Shown here: piece after piece, positions 6,801 to 64,000 of the stretch
Layout of the letters: each line of letters opens with the position of its first letter
Position numbering within the stretch: the stretch's first letter is position 1
From: a virus
Taxonomy: Duplodnaviria > Caudoviricetes
Virus record (IMG/VR): IMGVR_UViG_3300012808_000024
Location: 4,965 to 68,964 of that record
Direction: 5' to 3' (one strand)
Length of the DNA: 64,000 nucleotides
Made by a program: the position numbers and the translations under genes
The notes under the pieces: model-generated
Databases searched by the model: none
What the model was told of the DNA's origin: nothing
What the model saw: only the letters and a program-made list of their open reading frames with translations

Positions 6801-7728
6801 ACGTCAGGAAGCCAGAAGTGGATTCGACGCCAACCAGAATAGCCGCCGCTTGAGTACGTGCCGCTTCGGAAAGCCCGCCGAACGCCGTCTCGAGCGACCC
6901 GATAATGTCCGTAAACTCCCGAATATTACCGCCCTCGTCGATAATCGATACGCCCAACTGATCGAGTATATCCTGCGCGCGCTTCGTTGGCTTAACGAGC
7001 CGTAACAGCATCATACGTAGCTGCGTACCGGCCATTTCGCCTTGAATACCGGCATCGGACAATTTTGCGATAGCGGCCGCCGTGTCTTCGATGGATACGC
7101 CGGTAGTTGCCGCGATAGGAGCGACGTACTTTGCGGCATACCCGAGCTGTTCAATGTTCGTATTAGCGTTCGTCATTGTGCGCGCCAATACGTCAACAAC
7201 GCGGCCAGTTTCTTCCGCAGAAAGCTGAAATCCCGTAAGGATATTCGATGCAATGTCGGCAGTCCTCGCTAAGTCCATTTGTCCGGCCGCCGCCAAGTTG
7301 AGAACGCCCGGCATAGCGGCAAGGATTTCGTTGGTTTTAAATCCAGCCATTGCCAAAAATCCCTGAGCATCTGCCGCCTGGCTTGCCGTAAATACAGTCG
7401 TCGCTCCGAGTTCGAGCGATTGATCCTGAAGCCGCTTGAATTCGTCAGCCGTCGCGCCTGTAATCGCCTTTACTTTCGCCATCGATTGCTCGAATGTTGC
7501 CGCCACTTCGACGGACTTTGCGATAACCCCCGCCATTGCAGCAGTCAGCGCTCCGAACGCGATCCCCAGGTTTCTTACGTTGCCTTCCGTGCGCTTCGCG
7601 CTGTCGCCCGCACCGTCCGTTCGTTCCTCCAGGTCTCGTAAATTACGCCGTACTTCGTCGATTTCGCGGCGAAACTGCGTCATCTCCAAAACCATCCGCG
7701 CGCGTATTTCGCCTACATCCGTTGACAT
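3814..7728 (-). CDS. Tape measure protein (TP901-type core)
   Basis: 1304 aa; FEQSMAKVKAITGA..LGATTVFTASQAA..GIQGEMAGT core; long coiled coils; C-terminal HTGG. Confidence 0.95.
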   Translation of the reverse strand: MSTDVGEIRARMVLEMTQFRREIDEVRRNLRDLEERTDGAGDSAKRTEGNVRNLGIAFGALTAAMAGVIAKSVEVAATFEQSMAKVKAITGATADEFKRLQDQSLELGATTVFTASQAADAQGFLAMAGFKTNEILAAMPGVLNLAAAGQMDLARTADIASNILTGFQLSAEETGRVVDVLARTMTNANTNIEQLGYAAKYVAPIAATTGVSIEDTAAAIAKLSDAGIQGEMAGTQLRMMLLRLVKPTKRAQDILDQLGVSIIDEGGNIREFTDIIGSLETAFGGLSEAARTQAAAILVGVESTSGFLTLLNTGADELKRFSADLENAGGTAQRIADIQLDTFNGSVIAMKSALEGVGITVGNDFIPIMRSAAEAVTRALLGFNEMDSGLRVFLVTFPLLTGGVGTLITGIYGLYAALQALSAAGIIAKASLGWIAVAAAAAGTLGAAFISYRATASEAAKAQAEFNAQLEKAPFERTAEDVNNLRDQIDSLNGLLVKQAELVRKIDEAQPEGFWANTRRVIAGKSSELVMMEQQLRNVEQQLKVTFDVKTPEDAARRIEELNGQIQKSIPALADLLKEELKDTAAKQSQIEQTEKLSDRYSELSRQTTLTAAEKSELARVVGELTDKLPGLSTELDENGRLIITNESSVRSLITAEKDAVNSTVENAKKRTEAWRIETQQKLDYAKTQLKALAAISESGSKTFSGPDDPYGLMGDNPTLKSAALFMRQVTDGTKTAYEREVSTYTNALNDINGLLAKLDSGDWSSDFSGTGGGLGVGGEGDVDFTRSLRKDKSGDKKAKKEKTAEQIAQESYRASLQYIEKKRLLNQMSEQQELAALATLADKHKKYDDIWIDATKRRNQLADQMAAADKKRADDETRRQEDATKAAQKAARDKFDASAEWIDMETRRMTEKGESERDITEMQLAAWTRVRNRYEKDSDFYKRADREMYNARMSLRKQDEQAAKEAAQNAEKSTKELTKSVIDSIDKQRKAELEGLEVRKKATKDHYDDLLRIVDEYERGRDRKKIEEEAEKYRFATSEKGRKRYEELQEQLRKMDVEDNKKALAAERDDKLAALDRQKADIDSWYSDLKATIEDFNGDFISIYQTTEDERFAAFVETNAKIKAEMERFKSEMASITAAAAPAIDPYQQSLVYQMQANSNAWKSADAAGKQRLAAENQRLGTQVGATYNSGEGRWYKDSVPLYHTGGIAGEQPFSVGQMLMPDELTAILRRGEVVLTPEQITQLVGGRAAAAGTVHIETLVGMQVNEPTIEDNVDLNAYGRNAGEATAEMLRRAIIGGGGGVR

Positions 7729-9121: not shown

Positions 9122-9502
9122 TTAAGTCTTGCCGTTGATTAATCTTGCCGTAAAATTAACACTGTACAGCGCCCGATTATTGTCGTCGACTCCGAGATAG
9201 AGAGGCGCAGGCTGATCGGCAAAAGTTGCTACGATGCGCTGAGTGCCGATGCTGAAAGAACGCCGTTGGTGGTACGCCGTCCAAATAGCTAATGCCGTCG
9301 CCTCCGCAAGAACCGCCGTTTTCGCACGAACCACGACTTGGAACGTTGGCCGAAGCTGCGGCGTCCACTGCGAAGGTGCGTACCCGCCAGTAATCCGCAC
9401 ATATGCCGAATTGTCCGCGCCTGTAGCCAGGAACTCATTAACGTAATACGTGTACGGTACGGCGGCCTCAACGGAAGCTTTCAGCTCGTTTACCGTAAAC
9501 AT
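9122..9502 (-). CDS. Tail terminator / tail completion protein
   Basis: RPTFQVVVRA..YLGVDDNNRALYSVNF; position before tube gene. Confidence 0.7.
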   Translation of the reverse strand: MFTVNELKASVEAAVPYTYYVNEFLATGADNSAYVRITGGYAPSQWTPQLRPTFQVVVRAKTAVLAEATALAIWTAYHQRRSFSIGTQRIVATFADQPAPLYLGVDDNNRALYSVNFTARLINGKT

Positions 9503-50540: not shown

Positions 50541-51116
50541 TTAAACGACAAGATAGTCGCGGTAATCACCAAAACGACTGGAGTCGTAATTGCGTGCTAA
50601 TTTGCGAAGCTTGCGTTTAACAACCTCGTGGTGAAGTCCTAGCGCTTTGGCGAGCGCCGTGATGGACGGATACTGCGAAAACTCTGAGACGATTAACCTC
50701 GTTTCAGGGTCGACCTGGGAAGGGTCATTATTTACAAGGAAGTCGATCAGTTGGCGCTGGTCGGCTTCTTTTATTTTCAAAACCTCGTCCTCAACTGTTT
50801 CGTTAGCAACAACTTCGAATTTCGGAGCATCGGTTTCGTCAGTGCTCGCAGTTGAATCCAGAAACCCTCGCCTCCTATGGTAATTCCCTTCTTTAAACCT
50901 CAAAACGTCCACTGCCCTTTTCTTTAAACAGCCGTAAAGCCACGTCCTTAGAACTGCTCCTTTATTAGCGTTGAAATCTCTGTAAGCTAACCATAGTTCC
51001 TCGTTTAACTGACTGATAAATTCGGCTATGGGTATTCCCGATACTTTGTGGTACCTAATACTGATACTTAGAATATCTCTTTTTGAGGATTCAAACAATT
51101 CATCAAAACTCTGCAT
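50541..51116 (-). CDS. Phage sigma-70 family (ECF-like) sigma factor
   Basis: Region 2 (ELWLA..DFN..G..LRTWLY..L...AVD.LR) and C-terminal HTH (ITALAKALGLHH..VKRKL). Confidence 0.8.
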   Translation of the reverse strand: MQSFDELFESSKRDILSISIRYHKVSGIPIAEFISQLNEELWLAYRDFNANKGAVLRTWLYGCLKKRAVDVLRFKEGNYHRRRGFLDSTASTDETDAPKFEVVANETVEDEVLKIKEADQRQLIDFLVNNDPSQVDPETRLIVSEFSQYPSITALAKALGLHHEVVKRKLRKLARNYDSSRFGDYRDYLVV

Positions 51117-51149: not shown

Positions 51150-51184
51150 TTATTCGTGGTCACGAAGTAGCTTCGCACACTTTT
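51150..51184 (-). promoter_or_regulatory. Candidate phage-sigma promoter AAAAGTGTGCGAAG-N12-CACGAATAA
   Basis: Both boxes and spacing identical to 62020-62054. Confidence 0.7.
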
Positions 51185-51233: not shown

Positions 51234-51455
51234 GTGTTGCGTCTCATTCCAGACGTCTGCCTACTCGACGAGTGTCTACTGGCTGCGGGGATGACTCGTA
51301 GCCAACTAGCACGTAAAACAAATCTAGACCGACGATACCTCTCTCGGGTTGCTAACGGCGATATTACAGTTATGTCCCTTCCGATCGCTGTATTAATTGC
51401 GGACGCAATCGGGTGCAGCCCGAGAGATTTGTACGTATGGGAGATTAGTCGTTGA
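51234..51455 (+). CDS. Xre-family HTH protein (fifth gene of the Agr-like cassette)
   Basis: GMTRSQLARKTNLDRRYLSRVANG..MSL..A..IADAIGCSPRDLY; GGGAGG RBS. Confidence 0.9.
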   Translation: MLRLIPDVCLLDECLLAAGMTRSQLARKTNLDRRYLSRVANGDITVMSLPIAVLIADAIGCSPRDLYVWEISR

Positions 51456-51650
51456 GTAGCGGCTTCCAATCGGTAAACTGTTATTTGGTTTACCGTGACG
51501 AATATGTCTACTCTAGATGAGACATATATACGTAGACCGTCCGAAAAGCCTATTACCATACCCCTTATATATTGTCAAGAAAAATACAGTTTACCGAATC
51601 CAGATAACTGATTATGTTGTCTGGGTGGTATAATTAAAGGTTACTACATT

Positions 51651-52055
51651 TTACAAATTTTCGGAAGCTACGTTGCTCTTGATGAATTTTCCTTGACAGC
51701 ACGTCTGCCCTGTGCTGTTGGGAATAATTACATCTTTACGCTGCTTTGCCGAAACCGGCGCATATACCGCGCCCTTGCTCGCTGGTTCAGGCTCGAAAAA
51801 AATACGTTTCGTCCCCTCGTCAAAGTACTCCGCGTTATCCATATTAACCGCGTAACAGCGGTCTACCTTACGGAATCCCTGCGCCGCCAACATCCTCTCG
51901 TGTTCCTCAAACGTCGATACTTGCGGGAATAACCCCTCCGCCGTCTGATAATATACGCTTCCCTTGAAACTACGCATGAATAGTACGTCCTCGATGCGTA
52001 GGAATATGACGTCAAATTCCGTCTTGCTGTATCGCTTGACTACGGGTATTTGCAT
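51651..52055 (-). CDS. Stand-alone LytTR DNA-binding protein (no receiver domain)
   Basis: IEDVLF..S..GSV.Y.T..G, TFEE.E..L...GFRKVDRCYAVNM. Confidence 0.9.
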   Translation of the reverse strand: MQIPVVKRYSKTEFDVIFLRIEDVLFMRSFKGSVYYQTAEGLFPQVSTFEEHERMLAAQGFRKVDRCYAVNMDNAEYFDEGTKRIFFEPEPASKGAVYAPVSAKQRKDVIIPNSTGQTCCQGKFIKSNVASENL

Positions 52056-52057
52056 AT

Positions 52058-52189
52058 CTAGGCTCCTTTACGCCGCAACTCCTCCGGGATTTCCGGCTGG
52101 TGCAGCAGAAAGTATGATGCCGTGAGAACAAACATAGCCGACACACCTATCAATACCGTAGACACTAACGTAAACAATCTCTTTTTCAA
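52058..52189 (-). CDS. agrD: Cyclic lactone autoinducer propeptide MKKRLFTLVSTVLIGVSAMFVLTASYFLLHQPEIPEELRRKGA (not in track)
   Basis: TTG overlaps agrB TGA (TTGA); GGGAG RBS; amphipathic leader, ASxxxx core, HQPExPEEL tail. Confidence 0.9.
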   Translation of the reverse strand: MKKRLFTLVSTVLIGVSAMFVLTASYFLLHQPEIPEELRRKGA

Positions 52190-52719
52190 ACGAATCTCCC
52201 CCTAATGTACGGCAGCATTAGCGCTGCCTGAATGGTATATGTTATCGCAAGTAACTCGGAGCCAATGGCGAAATTGGCGGCAACCATGCCGAATGCTATC
52301 GCCTTGAGCAACGGATAATACTGCTCCGGTATCCTCGCGTATTTATCGAAATTGCACGGCGCTAATATCACCATAACTACGCACGATCCGGCTGTTAGCC
52401 CGTAAGTTAAGGCGCTGGAAATTGGTACTAGCGGGATTACAGCGAGTAGGCCGATGGATGCTACGGAACACCAAACGCTAGATTTTAGATGGAATCCGCC
52501 TGATACGTATCGGATAGCGCAGAACGCCACTAACACAAGGGCAGTCTCCGCGAGCGTTCCGATAATGCTCCCTATCACAAGCGCCGCCACTATGGTTAGA
52601 GCCGTGCTGAATATGATATGTAACGCATATTTGATTACGGCTACTGACGGAGGCGATGCGCCCGAGTCTCGAATTTTACCGTGGAGTCCTACCGCTATCT
52701 TTTGCAGCTTTCCCGTCAT
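52186..52719 (-). CDS. agrB: AgrB-family peptide-processing membrane protease
   Basis: IRYVSGGFHLKSS..C catalytic motif, ILAP; multiple TMs. Confidence 0.92.
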   Translation of the reverse strand: MTGKLQKIAVGLHGKIRDSGASPPSVAVIKYALHIIFSTALTIVAALVIGSIIGTLAETALVLVAFCAIRYVSGGFHLKSSVWCSVASIGLLAVIPLVPISSALTYGLTAGSCVVMVILAPCNFDKYARIPEQYYPLLKAIAFGMVAANFAIGSELLAITYTIQAALMLPYIRGRFV

Positions 52720-53371
52720 TATATCGATCCTTTCGCACGGAATAATATATCAGAAACGGAGTCGTGACCGCGAAAAGCGCACTTGCTACGATCGCGTATT
52801 CCGTGTAGTTATTGCGTAGCACCAGCGCAGCTATGACAGCCGCCGTTAGCGTCGTAATAATACTAGCTAGTATTAAAGCGTTAAGGCCAGTAACGGGGAC
52901 GTAAGCCCGTCTATCAGGCGGTACGAAATCGAATCCAAGGTTGAGTAATACAATAGTGCGTGCGATTGCTACGACTAAGAATGCGGTTAGGAGAATGACT
53001 AATGCGGTGAGTGTTGACGATTGTTGAACGGCCTTCATCGGCAGCCCTGTAGAGTTGAGCGTGATCAATACCGCTCCTTGTACGACGAATCCCACGATAA
53101 AGCCCACGAAATTCATCAAAATTGAGTAGTACCACGGCACCTTAAACAGTAGCCATAGTACGAACATCATCACGACCAATTGTATGTACGAGGACAAGTC
53201 GCCTATGTCCTCAGAAAGCCTCGTAATATATGAAACCTGGCTCATCATTACGCAGACAATGATGGTGGTGATTAGCCGCTCCATTATATCGAAACGGAAA
53301 AGCGCAAACATAAGCATAAATACGGAAAAGTACTCAATTACTGACGACCCCGTAAACAGTAGATAATCCAC
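52676..53371 (-). CDS. Multi-pass membrane protein resembling an AgrC sensor domain without kinase
   Basis: About 7 hydrophobic segments; no HisKA/HATPase motifs; GGAGG RBS; first gene of cassette. Confidence 0.75.
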   Translation of the reverse strand: MDYLLFTGSSVIEYFSVFMLMFALFRFDIMERLITTIIVCVMMSQVSYITRLSEDIGDLSSYIQLVVMMFVLWLLFKVPWYYSILMNFVGFIVGFVVQGAVLITLNSTGLPMKAVQQSSTLTALVILLTAFLVVAIARTIVLLNLGFDFVPPDRRAYVPVTGLNALILASIITTLTAAVIAALVLRNNYTEYAIVASALFAVTTPFLIYYSVRKDRYNDGKAAKDSGRTPR

Positions 53372-54341
53372 GTCGATATGCCTCCAACGATATATTTATA
53401 GTTGATAAAGCTCGACGTCGGTTTACCATCTCCGCAACCTGATCGACGCTGCCCTCGGTTGCTGTTTCGTTTACGTCCTTGTATCGACTCGGCACTGCGG
53501 CCACCGATACCTTTACGGCTCCTAGCATCGCCCCGATTACTGCCCGCTGCCACTTCCGCCCGGCCGCATCGTTATCTCGGACAACGACCAGCTCCTCGAT
53601 AGGACTCCGCTTAATCAAATCCGCTTTGTATTCGTTGAACGCAGACCCGAGCGTAGCAATCGCTGGAAAGCCCGCTGCCGCTAACGTCATTGCGTCAATC
53701 TCCGCCTCAACTATCGCTACTATACGACACTGCTTGCGGTAGATTACGTCAAGTCCAAATAGTAATTCGCGAATAGGTCGGCCGCCCTGTGCGTACCAAA
53801 ACAATTTTGTATCCGTCCGCCGGTACTTAACGTTCGCCAGCGTGCCGTCTGAGTTATATAGCGGAATGGTCACGGCCCTGCTTCCGGCATCATATCCGAT
53901 CCCATAGAGCCGCTGCACTGCTTCGGGTATACTCCGTCTGCCTAAGTACGGCGAGCGGTATTTATACGCATCAAGCAGGCTGCTGTCAAGTGGCCGGTAC
54001 ATTTCGGGTAACTCAAGCCTCGGGACGCGGAGCGGTCTTTCTTCGGCCTCGTCCGCTTCGTCTCCGTACTTGAGTCGGAGATAAGCGGCCGCCTCGTCGT
54101 ATCCGATCCCGTTAAGCCTGGCGATCAGCTCCGTAAAGCTGCCGCGCTCGCCCGTCCCTCTGTCGCCCCAATAACCAGCCCGCGCCGTCGCCGTATCCTC
54201 AAAATATACGTAAAAAGACGGGTGACTGTCGGTGTGCTGCCCGCGGATTTCAGGCGGAGAGCAAGCGAGGAGGTACGAGTCCGCCCAGGTTGCGCGATCC
54301 CACCGGTAGGCTTCGAGTTCGGTGCGGTAGTCAATGTTCAA
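53334..54341 (-). CDS. TOPRIM-domain DNA primase
   Basis: HPSF, GSF..L, IPLY..NVKYR, IVEAEIDAMT, VRDND.AG, KDVNE. Confidence 0.9.
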   Translation of the reverse strand: MNIDYRTELEAYRWDRATWADSYLLACSPPEIRGQHTDSHPSFYVYFEDTATARAGYWGDRGTGERGSFTELIARLNGIGYDEAAAYLRLKYGDEADEAEERPLRVPRLELPEMYRPLDSSLLDAYKYRSPYLGRRSIPEAVQRLYGIGYDAGSRAVTIPLYNSDGTLANVKYRRTDTKLFWYAQGGRPIRELLFGLDVIYRKQCRIVAIVEAEIDAMTLAAAGFPAIATLGSAFNEYKADLIKRSPIEELVVVRDNDAAGRKWQRAVIGAMLGAVKVSVAAVPSRYKDVNETATEGSVDQVAEMVNRRRALSTINISLEAYRRGLSTVYGVVSN

Positions 54342-54631
54342 TCAGCGTCACCGTCCTCTTTTTTCCGTTTCAGAATACTTAGGCCCCGATCATAGTGGTC
54401 TTCACTAGTCATCTCGGCATTAACATAGTTAAGTTCTTCTTCTAAATCGGTCAATGCGGCCAGTAAGAGTCTAGAGACAAGTTCCTGCTTACTCAACTGT
54501 AAATCACCGGCCGCCTGCTCGATCCGCAAATTGTCCTTCTCGGTCAGTGTAAGGGAAAATCTTGTAGTCTTCACTCCTCCTGCGCGATAAACCTCCGCTA
54601 GTTCTCTCACTACGTTTTTTATCTCACTCAC
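54338..54631 (-). CDS. Ribbon-helix-helix-like protein
   Basis: TTRFSLTL...NLRIEQAA..L.LSKQELVSRLL..AL.DLE. Confidence 0.55.
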   Translation of the reverse strand: MSEIKNVVRELAEVYRAGGVKTTRFSLTLTEKDNLRIEQAAGDLQLSKQELVSRLLLAALTDLEEELNYVNAEMTSEDHYDRGLSILKRKKEDGDAD

Positions 54632-54709
54632 TGTAACCACTCCCGTATTTTTATGAGTGAATTATATCATCAATTTTTACGCAATGTAAAGAGCAATATC
54701 GCACTCTTT

Positions 54710-62019: not shown

Positions 62020-62054
62020 TTATTCGTGCTTAATCAATGACTTCGCACACTTTT
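62020..62054 (-). promoter_or_regulatory. Candidate phage-sigma promoter AAAAGTGTGCGAAG-N12-CACGAATAA
   Basis: Same as 51150-51184; heads the replication operon. Confidence 0.7.
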
Positions 62055-62241: not shown

Positions 62242-62826
62242 TTGGAGATGCGAAGATTTTTGCACACCGGTCTAATTACACTATTTCTAGTCGTGGCGAC
62301 TGCCTGCGGAGGGAATTCAGGAGAGGACGGGCAATTTGCGGAGCTTGTAGAGCAGGCGAAGACGCATTACGGTAATAAAGATTTACTATCCGCGCGGGAA
62401 GTTTACGAAAAAGCGCTAGAAACGAAAGAAGACTCGGAAGTCCGTAGTGCTTTGCGTGAATTGAATAATGAAATAGAAAAGACACGGGAGTTTAACCAAT
62501 TGATCGATTCGCTACGAGAGGCCCAAAGGGGAGCGAAAGCATCGTTGTCAGTTGCGGAGATTAAAAAGCAGGGAGTAATCGTCGATGACGTTATCATGGC
62601 GCTGGACAACTACGAGTACGTCGGAGACTACTATGTCAATCGATACATAAAGAAAGCGAGAGACAGTGCCGAGTACGTTTCGTTGGGACTCGCAGGAATG
62701 TCGGCAAAGATTCCAGAAGTTGTAAAAGAATTTACCGTAACAGAAAGCGCGAATGACTTAATAGAGGCTGTCGACGCTCTTATGAGTAAAATTGAGTACC
62801 CGGATATTTTACGCAGCGTTAAATGA
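62242..62826 (+). CDS. Lipoprotein with TPR-like helix pair (possible superinfection exclusion)
   Basis: LFLVVATAC lipobox-like; AREVYEKALE; own terminator. Confidence 0.7.
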   Translation: MEMRRFLHTGLITLFLVVATACGGNSGEDGQFAELVEQAKTHYGNKDLLSAREVYEKALETKEDSEVRSALRELNNEIEKTREFNQLIDSLREAQRGAKASLSVAEIKKQGVIVDDVIMALDNYEYVGDYYVNRYIKKARDSAEYVSLGLAGMSAKIPEVVKEFTVTESANDLIEAVDALMSKIEYPDILRSVK

Positions 62827-62965: not shown

Positions 62966-64000
62966 CTAGCGATGTGTCCTGCGGTCTTTGCTTAACTTGT
63001 TCGTGATATTGTGGATAGCCGAGTACTTACTGTGCATTTCCTTTACGGATTTTTTGGACAAGTGCGTATATCGCATAACCATGCGTAAATCGCGGTGTCC
63101 AAGCATTTCCGCCAAGAACCGAACCTCTCCGCCATTTTCTAAATAGATCGTCGCCGCGCTGTGTCGGAATAAGTGAGGGTAAACGTTTATCTCCAGACCA
63201 GCCTTCTCTGCGTATATCTTTATACGATCCCGCATCCGATCATCTGCTATGTTCTCTCCGTAATTCGTTAAGAAGATGAACTCACTGTCAAAATCTTCGT
63301 TCTCCTTAATTAAATCCGCGAGAAGTCTTAACGTCCCTTTTGATATTGGAACTTTTTTTGACCGCCTGACCTTAACATTATTTGCGGGAATCGTAATAAG
63401 TTCAAGGTTAAAATCTATATCAGATACTTTAATCTTTACAGCTTCGTTCAGTCGAAAGAATCCGTCGATTAGCACATTCATAAATACGAAGTCGCGGAAC
63501 CCAACGTATGTCTTCCGATTCGGCATTTTTAGCAGTCGCTCAAGCTGCTCTCCTGACATAACCTCTATCTCTGACTCAGGTTCAATTACCGGTTTGATTT
63601 TCGCCATCGGATTATTTTGAATATAATCCTCATCGTAAAGAAAATTGAACATTGTGCGTAAGCCTTTCAGCCGAGTGTTTACTGTGACGGGTGACAGCCC
63701 GACTGTTTTGTCTTTCTCTGCTTTGTGTGCGTGCCCCTCCCATTTCCGTTTTTCTTTGAGCATGTAGGAAATATACGACCGCACTAATTCTGTAGTTACA
63801 ACGTCAACCTCTCGCGGTAAATTTTGAAGGGATAGATAATCGCATAAGAATCTATAATTTTCTTCATAAGTTTGTAGTGTTCGGTTCGACACACCTTCGG
63901 CAACCTTTGCGTTAAAGAAAGTGCTATATAGGTCGTCTAGGGAAACTAGGTTTGACTGTTTTCGTGTGTTTTTATATTGTCGCCCAACTCGCTTATCCAT
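62966..64000 (-). CDS. int: Tyrosine recombinase / phage integrase
   Basis: F.R..E, K, PHLFRH, LGHRDLRMVMRY catalytic residues; N-terminal SAM-like domain. Confidence 0.95.
   Translation of the reverse strand: MDKRVGRQYKNTRKQSNLVSLDDLYSTFFNAKVAEGVSNRTLQTYEENYRFLCDYLSLQNLPREVDVVTTELVRSYISYMLKEKRKWEGHAHKAEKDKTVGLSPVTVNTRLKGLRTMFNFLYDEDYIQNNPMAKIKPVIEPESEIEVMSGEQLERLLKMPNRKTYVGFRDFVFMNVLIDGFFRLNEAVKIKVSDIDFNLELITIPANNVKVRRSKKVPISKGTLRLLADLIKENEDFDSEFIFLTNYGENIADDRMRDRIKIYAEKAGLEINVYPHLFRHSAATIYLENGGEVRFLAEMLGHRDLRMVMRYTHLSKKSVKEMHSKYSAIHNITNKLSKDRRTHR

Follow-up and report, generated by a model that had tools for sequence, protein, structure and literature searches.

Phage-borne genes of the Agr type are the closest described relatives of the locus considered here, a four-gene cassette carried in a window of 64,000 nucleotides (bases 4965–68964 of the IMG/VR provirus record IMGVR_UViG_3300012808_000024; "the window" refers to this whole stretch), which is nearly wholly one temperate phage. 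The phage phiCDHM1 carries agrB, agrD and agrC (Hargreaves et al. 2014; PMC3901668), and the initial annotation of the window was right to cite it as a precedent for Agr genes on a phage. The same paper mentions in passing putative cassettes with ATPase-less membrane proteins in the phages Davies, Emery and Abouo, and the part of its text bearing on these cassettes names AgrB, AgrD and membrane proteins only (PMC3901668). In a 2025 review, phage agr sets are said to lack a regulator (PMC11945551).

Outside phages, the LytTR regulatory systems, exemplified by HdrRM and BrsRM from Streptococcus mutans, couple a LytTR regulator to an inhibitor protein in the membrane (Zou et al. 2018; PMC6193735). 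On the other hand, the Alo system of Paenibacillus polymyxa, to which the initial annotation likened the cassette, consists of AloR/AloP and belongs to the RRNPP receptor–peptide type (PMC7425212). The likeness does not hold, as Alo is not an Agr system, and for the same reason the suggestion that the phage jams the Alo signalling of its host is left without basis. A literature search, with most subscription journals outside it, found no paper describing the kinase-less module treated below as a unit, or its working.

The cassette is a unit of 2.1 kb, formed by four tightly packed minus-strand genes located 3' of the phage primase gene:

52676–53371, minus strand: seven-helix membrane protein of 231 amino acids, a putative receptor or LytTR controller, without a kinase domain (phrog_15604, E 1e-14)
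52186–52719, minus strand: AgrB, 177 amino acids, a membrane cysteine peptidase for AgrD cleavage and cyclisation (PF04647, E 7.9e-16)
52058–52189, minus strand: AgrD propeptide, 43 amino acids (TIGR04223, E 1.4e-10, 41 bits with a cut-off of 19)
51651–52055, minus strand: stand-alone LytTR DNA-binding protein of 134 amino acids, with no receiver domain (PF04397, E 1.8e-6, 28.5 bits with a cut-off of 22.6)

These genes, which match the PHROG families 15604, 10353 and 15081, constitute a complete Agr-type producer set, supplemented by a kinase-less membrane protein and a regulator that is LytTR-only, all borne by a phage as an accessory cassette. The domains HATPase_c_5, HATPase_c and Response_reg gave zero matches across all 68,964 bp of the provirus, so that the term kinase-less, already used in the initial annotation, extends to the whole provirus, where neither a kinase ATPase nor a receiver domain is found. 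As read from the sequence, the primase gene overlaps the membrane-protein gene by 38 nucleotides (nt), the membrane-protein gene overlaps agrB by 44 nt, and agrB overlaps agrD by 4 nt (TTGA), while a gap of 2 nt separates agrD from the LytTR gene. A GGAGG-type ribosome-binding site lies 6–10 nt 5' of the start of every cassette gene. The reading frames, the domain matches and the overlaps all bear out the earlier description of a four-gene, Agr-like cassette coupled to the end of the primase gene. The primase itself ends in a non-conserved C-terminal tail, since the matches of its homologues end at residue 295–325 of 335, and it is this tail that overlaps the start of the membrane-protein gene.

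With regard to signal production, residues R70, G75, H77 and C84 of AgrB (numbered as in the window) are conserved in 100% of 34 AgrB proteins from modules of this kind. In AgrB from Staphylococcus aureus, catalysis relies on His77 and Cys84. Compared by sequence, the AgrB of the window has no solved relative in the PDB. In the alignment, the AgrD proteins of these modules have a hydrophobic leader in common, as well as an acidic tail of the form P-x-E-L, and the ring column, 10 residues before the conserved proline, holds a serine in most of them and a cysteine in some (loci L010, L026, and L027). Because the serine of the window's AgrD falls in this column, its product is predicted to be a lactone whose ring has five residues, S-Y-F-L-L, and carries a short exocyclic tail, with cleavage before H-Q-P-E. 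Judging from these sequence features, the producer half of the cassette (AgrB and AgrD) looks functional.

The membrane protein finds no family match in either Pfam or NCBIfam. An exhaustive phmmer search defines for it a family of 160 representatives at the 50% identity level, mostly of 210–240 amino acids. No kinase-fused form occurs among the 150 listed representatives, the longest of which has 293 residues, and a profile search in longer proteins, which is weak evidence, yielded no fused form either. The AF2 model, built on an alignment of 60 sequences and reaching a pLDDT of 95, consists of seven long helices, and the chain ends after helix 7. According to a topology assigned by hand with the positive-inside rule, the N-terminus would lie outside, and the conserved G-F-x-F-V-P loop (144–161) and the basic C-tail would be cytoplasmic. 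Four near-invariant polar residues (S10, E13, S47, and Q98) are located in the transmembrane helices. In a structure search of the ESM Atlas, 214 of the 231 residues matched the membrane half of 422-residue HATPase_c_5 kinases, which are of the AgrC type, with a TM score of 0.67. As for the LytTR protein, its homologues in the modules measure 111–136 amino acids, and among the solved structures of the PDB the family profile matches AgrA and ComE in their LytTR domains; a word-index search matched nothing besides the window protein itself. A complex prediction for the membrane protein with LytTR, based on family alignments, reached a best score of 0.29 for a mark of 0.32 and counts neither way.

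Modules of the same composition are common in the bacterial family. At least one copy is present in 190 of 301 sampled Paenibacillaceae genomes (63%), with up to seven copies per genome, whereas homologues of a classic AgrC-like kinase are much rarer (19 of 151 genomes). The order membrane gene, AgrB, small open reading frame (ORF), and LytTR is found in every sampled context long enough to show it, the contexts being the Thermobacillus composti chromosome, one Paenibacillaceae genome, and metagenomic contigs. Among 33 genome loci, 26 are full modules, three lack AgrB but retain its three partners (the membrane protein, AgrD, and LytTR), one holds the membrane protein and AgrB (L040, which lacks LytTR), and three hold the membrane protein alone (L030, L031, and L041). 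The pairing of the membrane protein with LytTR is therefore kept in 29 of the 33 loci, three of them AgrB-less. The AgrB-less chromosomal triads are L013 in genome G001, L033/L050 in G074, and L035/L051 in G251. Those of G074 and G251 adjoin ordinary metabolic genes (alanine dehydrogenase, PucR, and an MFS transporter), and G074 holds one AgrB elsewhere in the genome. Such triads fit with a shareable AgrB and with the membrane protein and LytTR as a sensing pair; they suggest that the membrane protein, the peptide, and LytTR form the specific sensing set, and that AgrB can act in trans.

The surroundings of some bacterial modules are worth recording separately. The chromosomal modules of G001 (L004, ~6990–7100) and Thermobacillus composti (L006, ~6850–7130) lie directly 3' of tRNA-like genes, as recognised by eye, and in a Thermobacillus metagenome-assembled genome (L007) a phage integrase is found ~2 kb past the module.

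The reading that we favour, by a narrow measure, is that the cassette is a phosphorelay-free signalling module of the Agr type, in which the membrane protein would act as a receptor controlling LytTR by direct contact, with a likely output on a phage promoter. AgrB would cleave and cyclise AgrD to yield the lactone signal, and the seven-helix membrane protein would be the receptor of this peptide, holding or releasing the LytTR factor depending on peptide binding. Direct protein contact is the most likely route because the membrane protein and LytTR are both devoid of kinase and receiver domains. Once freed, LytTR would act on a promoter, which most plausibly belongs to the phage and lies near the switch formed by the Xre and sigma factor genes that follow the cassette, and infected or lysogenic cells would sense each other through a phage-specific peptide type. 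The mechanism would most likely be a hybrid, joining Agr signal production to the transduction of the LytTR regulatory systems, with receptor function, binding, and output all putative. The initial annotation regarded the path from the membrane to LytTR as both kinase-free and unknown; the first part agrees with the lack of kinase and receiver domains, but the second does not, as the LytTR regulatory systems provide a published paradigm (PMC6193735).

Related prophages, marked by primase homologues, occur in 26 of 401 family genomes. The cassette lies directly 3' of the primase gene in four relatives, namely the prophages of G045 and G057 (primase 69–71% identical), that of G040 (53%), and the metagenomic contig L005, and all four share synteny with the window over the interval between DnaC and DNA polymerase. 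Hence, the cassette is not peculiar to this phage, and its absence from relatives, which the initial annotation had named as a sign of passive capture, is not what is found. An AgrB-based search for related loci among viral contigs found nothing. In many relatives that carry no cassette, the primase gene is followed by a convergent Xre gene and then by a sigma gene homologous to that of the window. The direct joining of primase, Xre, and sigma in these phages implies that Xre and sigma belong to the backbone and that the cassette is a 2.1-kb insertion; neither of them is a wired-in part of the cassette, in which the initial annotation had counted Xre. The features surrounding it are the following:

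53334–54341, minus strand: DnaG-type primase of 335 amino acids, phage backbone (phrog_47, E 1.8e-34; Toprim_2, E 3.6e-12)
54338–54640, minus strand: gene of 100 amino acids located 5' of the primase gene (GC 0.46)
54661–54690, minus strand: sigma-70-like promoter, a consensus match only (TTTACA, 18 nt, TG-TATAAT; 11 of 12 consensus positions)
51456–51650: AT-rich intergenic region between LytTR and Xre (GC 0.37)
51234–51455, plus strand: Xre-family HTH protein, phage backbone, convergent with LytTR and divergent from sigma (HTH_3/HTH_26, E 1.3e-9)
50541–51116, minus strand: sigma-70/ECF-like phage factor, backbone (Sigma70_r2, E 5e-6; TIGR02937, E 5.6e-9, below the cut-off)
62966–64000: integrase, at the start of the gene order given further below

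Between phages, the cassette proteins diverge more than their flanks, with identities of 35–46% for the membrane protein and 32–37% for LytTR compared to 62–79% for DnaB. In a maximum-likelihood tree of the receptor, the phage copies are polyphyletic among the bacterial ones, and well-supported branches force at least four changes. The window receptor is sister to the chromosomal copy L004 (99/93), and that of L005 is sister to the chromosomal copy L013, where chromosomal means that no primase adjoins the module, and nothing more. This polyphyly, together with the chromosomal sisters, indicates that the same phage site has been filled or refilled by different module lineages.

Regarding its expression, the cassette is probably co-transcribed with the replication genes, since no terminator is predicted on the minus strand from the promoter at 54661–54690 to LytTR and the gap between primase and cassette is just 5 nt in G045 and G057; internal promoters may also contribute. 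The sigma-70-like promoter (54690–54661) sits 5' of the 100-amino-acid gene, the primase gene, and the cassette. The region between LytTR and Xre contains a TTGACA promoter-like site at ~51550–51580 that reads through antisense Xre toward sigma, as well as a 26-bp palindrome (51502–51527) whose half-sites are kept in the phage contig L005 (~9123–9146, with a 4-nt gap). A further pair of elements, AAGTGTGCGAAG followed 13 nt on by CACGAATAA, occurs exactly twice in the window, both times on the minus strand (51150–51184 and 62020–62054), once before the sigma gene and once before the early/replication operon (shared motif 62041–62052), and a similar element, GTGTGCGAA, precedes the sigma homologue in contig L005. 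This motif is a candidate promoter for the phage sigma factor, or a candidate shared operator.

Other repeats in this region were considered as well. The 11-mer ACAGTTTACCG, which resembles an AgrA box, has exactly two copies in the window, both between LytTR and Xre; as a LytTR-specific site it was rejected, because the inverted repeat at its core turns up as well in L092, a relative that has no cassette. The GGTAAAC inverted repeat of this region has counterparts at the 3' end of Xre in L044 and in L092, and its presence in the latter makes it a backbone element.

Several results weigh against the mechanism proposed above. About 21 more distant phage relatives have no cassette at the post-primase site, so the cassette is not essential for the Xre–sigma switch. 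The element CGGTAAAC, three of whose six copies in the window cluster between LytTR and Xre (51471–51596), also occurs in a cassette-less relative and is thus not LytTR-specific. No clear direct-repeat LytTR boxes were found 5' of the modules in a scan of 29 upstream regions (10-mers with at most one mismatch and a spacing of 17–25 nt), a stringent scan that weaker repeats could escape; candidates appeared only in L005 (21-nt spacing), L014, and L016. With respect to the receptor, a hidden Markov model of the membrane-protein alignment showed no similarity to Paenibacillaceae kinases, hhalign gave a probability of 18–30% for the membrane protein with 24 HPK10 N-termini, and Foldseek, run with the pLDDT-95 model, returned nothing from the PDB at E <= 0.001. 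In VIA-align the same model recovered generic helical hairpins only (best Z 8.4), and the membrane-protein profile had no match among PDB sequences. The label "AgrC-sensor-like" should consequently be read as a structural lead from a predicted fold, short of shown homology. The parallel with the LytTR regulatory systems is imperfect as well: there the regulator comes first, while in the window the membrane gene comes first and the regulator last, with agrB and agrD between them, and HdrM is reported to contain DUF2154, whereas the window protein has neither DUF2154 nor any other Pfam domain.

What the phosphorelay-free module would do for the phage is a matter of more tentative proposals. It is possible, although we would not count on it, that a derivative of Agr free of phosphorylation serves a clade of temperate Paenibacillaceae phages as a private channel, with diverging peptide types and with an output on a promoter that leads into the Xre–sigma switch. 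A function of the cassette in phage decisions is, in general, a hypothesis to be entertained with similar reserve. In the lysogens G045 and G057, the prophage ring is SYVFI, in contrast to the rings SPVAG and SWLYI of the two chromosomal modules examined per genome. This difference makes the prophage peptide look like a separate channel and not a host copy, and near identity to a host module, the other sign of passive capture raised in the initial annotation, is not seen in these two lysogens. Along with the shared insertion site and the polyphyly of the receptor copies, the peptide difference speaks for upkeep of the cassette by the phage lineage. On the other hand, the window does not differ in its ring, SYFLL, from the AgrB-less chromosomal modules of G074 and G251, whose receptor is 52% and whose LytTR is 58% identical to the phage proteins, so that cross-talk with some hosts is possible. 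The window prophage was not found in the genomes G001, G074, and G251.

Among the rival explanations, the one that survives best is lysogenic conversion or host manipulation, in which the output would be host physiology, or a crosstalk with the kinase-less Agr modules of the host (through a new peptide type, eavesdropping, or interference), instead of a phage decision. This is somewhat unlikely. In its favour, host-family genomes hold as many as seven modules, the window receptor has its sister in the chromosomal copy L004, its predicted ring recurs unchanged in G074 and G251, and most phage relatives run the Xre–sigma switch with no cassette at all. However, overlapping frames within a replication operon, and the 5-nt gap in G045 and G057, suggest expression in the lytic phase and not from a lysogeny promoter, and the cassette stands beside phage regulatory genes here and beside integrase and repressor genes in Abouo and Emery.

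A second rival concerns the membrane protein, which could be a factor for the maturation or export of the peptide or for self-protection, with LytTR controlled otherwise (for example through re-imported peptide) or constitutive. In staphylococci, extra membrane factors are needed for AgrD processing. The failure to detect sequence homology between the membrane protein and sensor domains is in keeping with such a role, the near-invariant polar residues S10, E13, S47, and Q98 could be catalytic or transport residues, and there are loci that have the membrane protein and AgrB but no LytTR (L040) or the membrane protein alone (L030, L031, and L041). Nevertheless, three loci keep the membrane protein with AgrD and LytTR in the absence of AgrB, which is odd for an AgrB helper and natural for a receptor–regulator pair; moreover, its predicted fold is similar to that of the membrane module in AgrC-type kinases, and no peptidase or transporter family is matched. 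We regard this role as quite improbable. Finally, the notion that the cassette is a passive passenger, captured from a host not long ago and without a function that the phage maintains, draws on the GC content of the cassette (0.46–0.51, below the 0.54–0.56 of the flanking primase and DnaB genes) and on its closest relative being a chromosomal copy, but it is already disfavoured and very improbable given that all four genes are intact with their catalytic residues conserved, that the same insertion site is filled in five related phages by different module lineages, and that the prophage copies differ from the host copies examined.

The phage that carries the cassette is a temperate siphophage-type provirus of the Paenibacillus type, with a record of 68,964 bp that CheckV rates as 100% complete (IMG/VR class provirus). 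The minus strand holds almost every gene, in the order integrase, anti-repressor (Ant), DnaC, DnaB, primase, DNA polymerase, ribonucleotide reductase, methyltransferases, terminase, portal, capsid, and tape measure. The region around the cassette is a mosaic in its GC content, with 0.44 for the sigma gene and 0.46 for both the membrane-protein gene and the 100-amino-acid gene, compared to 0.54–0.56 for primase and DnaB. The sole sizeable plus-strand gene beside the integrase is an ORF of 194 amino acids (62242–62826), divergent from the early promoter, for which comparison with Pfam and PHROG gave no match; it is a candidate lysogeny repressor or moron.

If the phosphorelay-free reading is correct, a widespread version of Agr without kinase and receiver would represent a distinct signal-transduction route for a system that is otherwise a textbook two-component one, and it would show by what route the kinase-less Agr modules so common on Paenibacillaceae chromosomes signal. 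If it also holds for the phages, a second, independently evolved form of peptide communication would stand beside arbitrium, an analogue built from unrelated parts, with phage-specific peptide variants at a fixed genomic position next to a developmental switch. The cassette is directly testable, as it comprises only 2.1 kb, has a short predicted peptide, and has the same layout in the published phages Abouo, Davies, and Emery. It also calls for a database correction, because LytTR genes of such cassettes carry the label "peptidase".

Compared with the known systems, the arbitrium system of SPbeta-like phages (AimR-AimP-AimX) resembles the cassette in having a phage-encoded secreted peptide with phage-specific variants, encoded beside regulatory genes, although for the window this function is putative. 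The parts are different: in arbitrium, a linear hexapeptide meets a TPR receptor inside the cell that belongs to the RRNPP type, whereas the cassette has a cyclic peptide made by AgrB, a membrane protein, and LytTR. A Pfam scan of nine proteins of the region, namely those of the cassette, Xre, sigma, primase, and two neighbours, gave no TPR match. With the canonical agrBDCA of S. aureus, the cassette shares an AgrB with His77/Cys84, an AgrD whose five-residue core is of the (thio)lactone type and whose P-x-E-L tail is acidic, and a LytTR output domain, but the window provirus has neither an AgrC-type (HPK10) histidine kinase nor an AgrA-type receiver. The agr3 locus of phiCDHM1 is its opposite, as it encodes a full-length AgrC kinase and no regulator, while the window cassette encodes a regulator and no kinase.

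The LytTR regulatory systems are alike in that they encode a soluble regulator of the LytTR-only kind alongside a polytopic membrane protein, in both cases with no phosphorelay domains. Unlike them, the window cassette encodes a dedicated peptide that is presumably secreted, and the direct-repeat autoregulatory boxes typical of those systems were not found 5' of the modules in the stringent scan.

The nearest likeness is to Abouo (gp44–47), Davies, and Emery (gp54–57), phages of Brevibacillus laterosporus in which the genes have the same order and sizes: a membrane protein of ~222 amino acids, AgrB, a small AgrD-like ORF, and a LytTR protein of ~122 amino acids. They match the same PHROG families, and in each case the four genes lie on a temperate phage of Paenibacillaceae/Brevibacillaceae. 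The fourth gene is annotated as "peptidase" in Abouo and as "hypothetical protein" in Emery, and both match LytTR, Emery gp57 more weakly; Abouo gp47 (L001, 4657–5025) matches PF04397 with an E value of 1e-6, above the Pfam cut-off, and the window LytTR matches phrog_15081, which bears the "peptidase" label too. On the strength of these matches, the label on Abouo gp47 and phrog_15081 is probably mistaken and conceals the regulator of these cassettes. In Emery, the membrane protein is moreover present as two paralogues, encoded in tandem before AgrB (gp53 and gp54; L002, 2604–4005). Despite these similarities, the Abouo-type AgrB is just 27–30% identical to that of the window, and the Abouo-type precursor has no Ser/Cys at the aligned ring position. 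The setting differs as well, since in Abouo and Emery the cassette adjoins integrase and repressor genes, while in the window it is joined directly to the replication operon, at its end. What is new here is an Abouo-type cassette at the end of a replication operon, ahead of a conserved Xre–sigma pair, at a site that has been filled repeatedly by different lineages.

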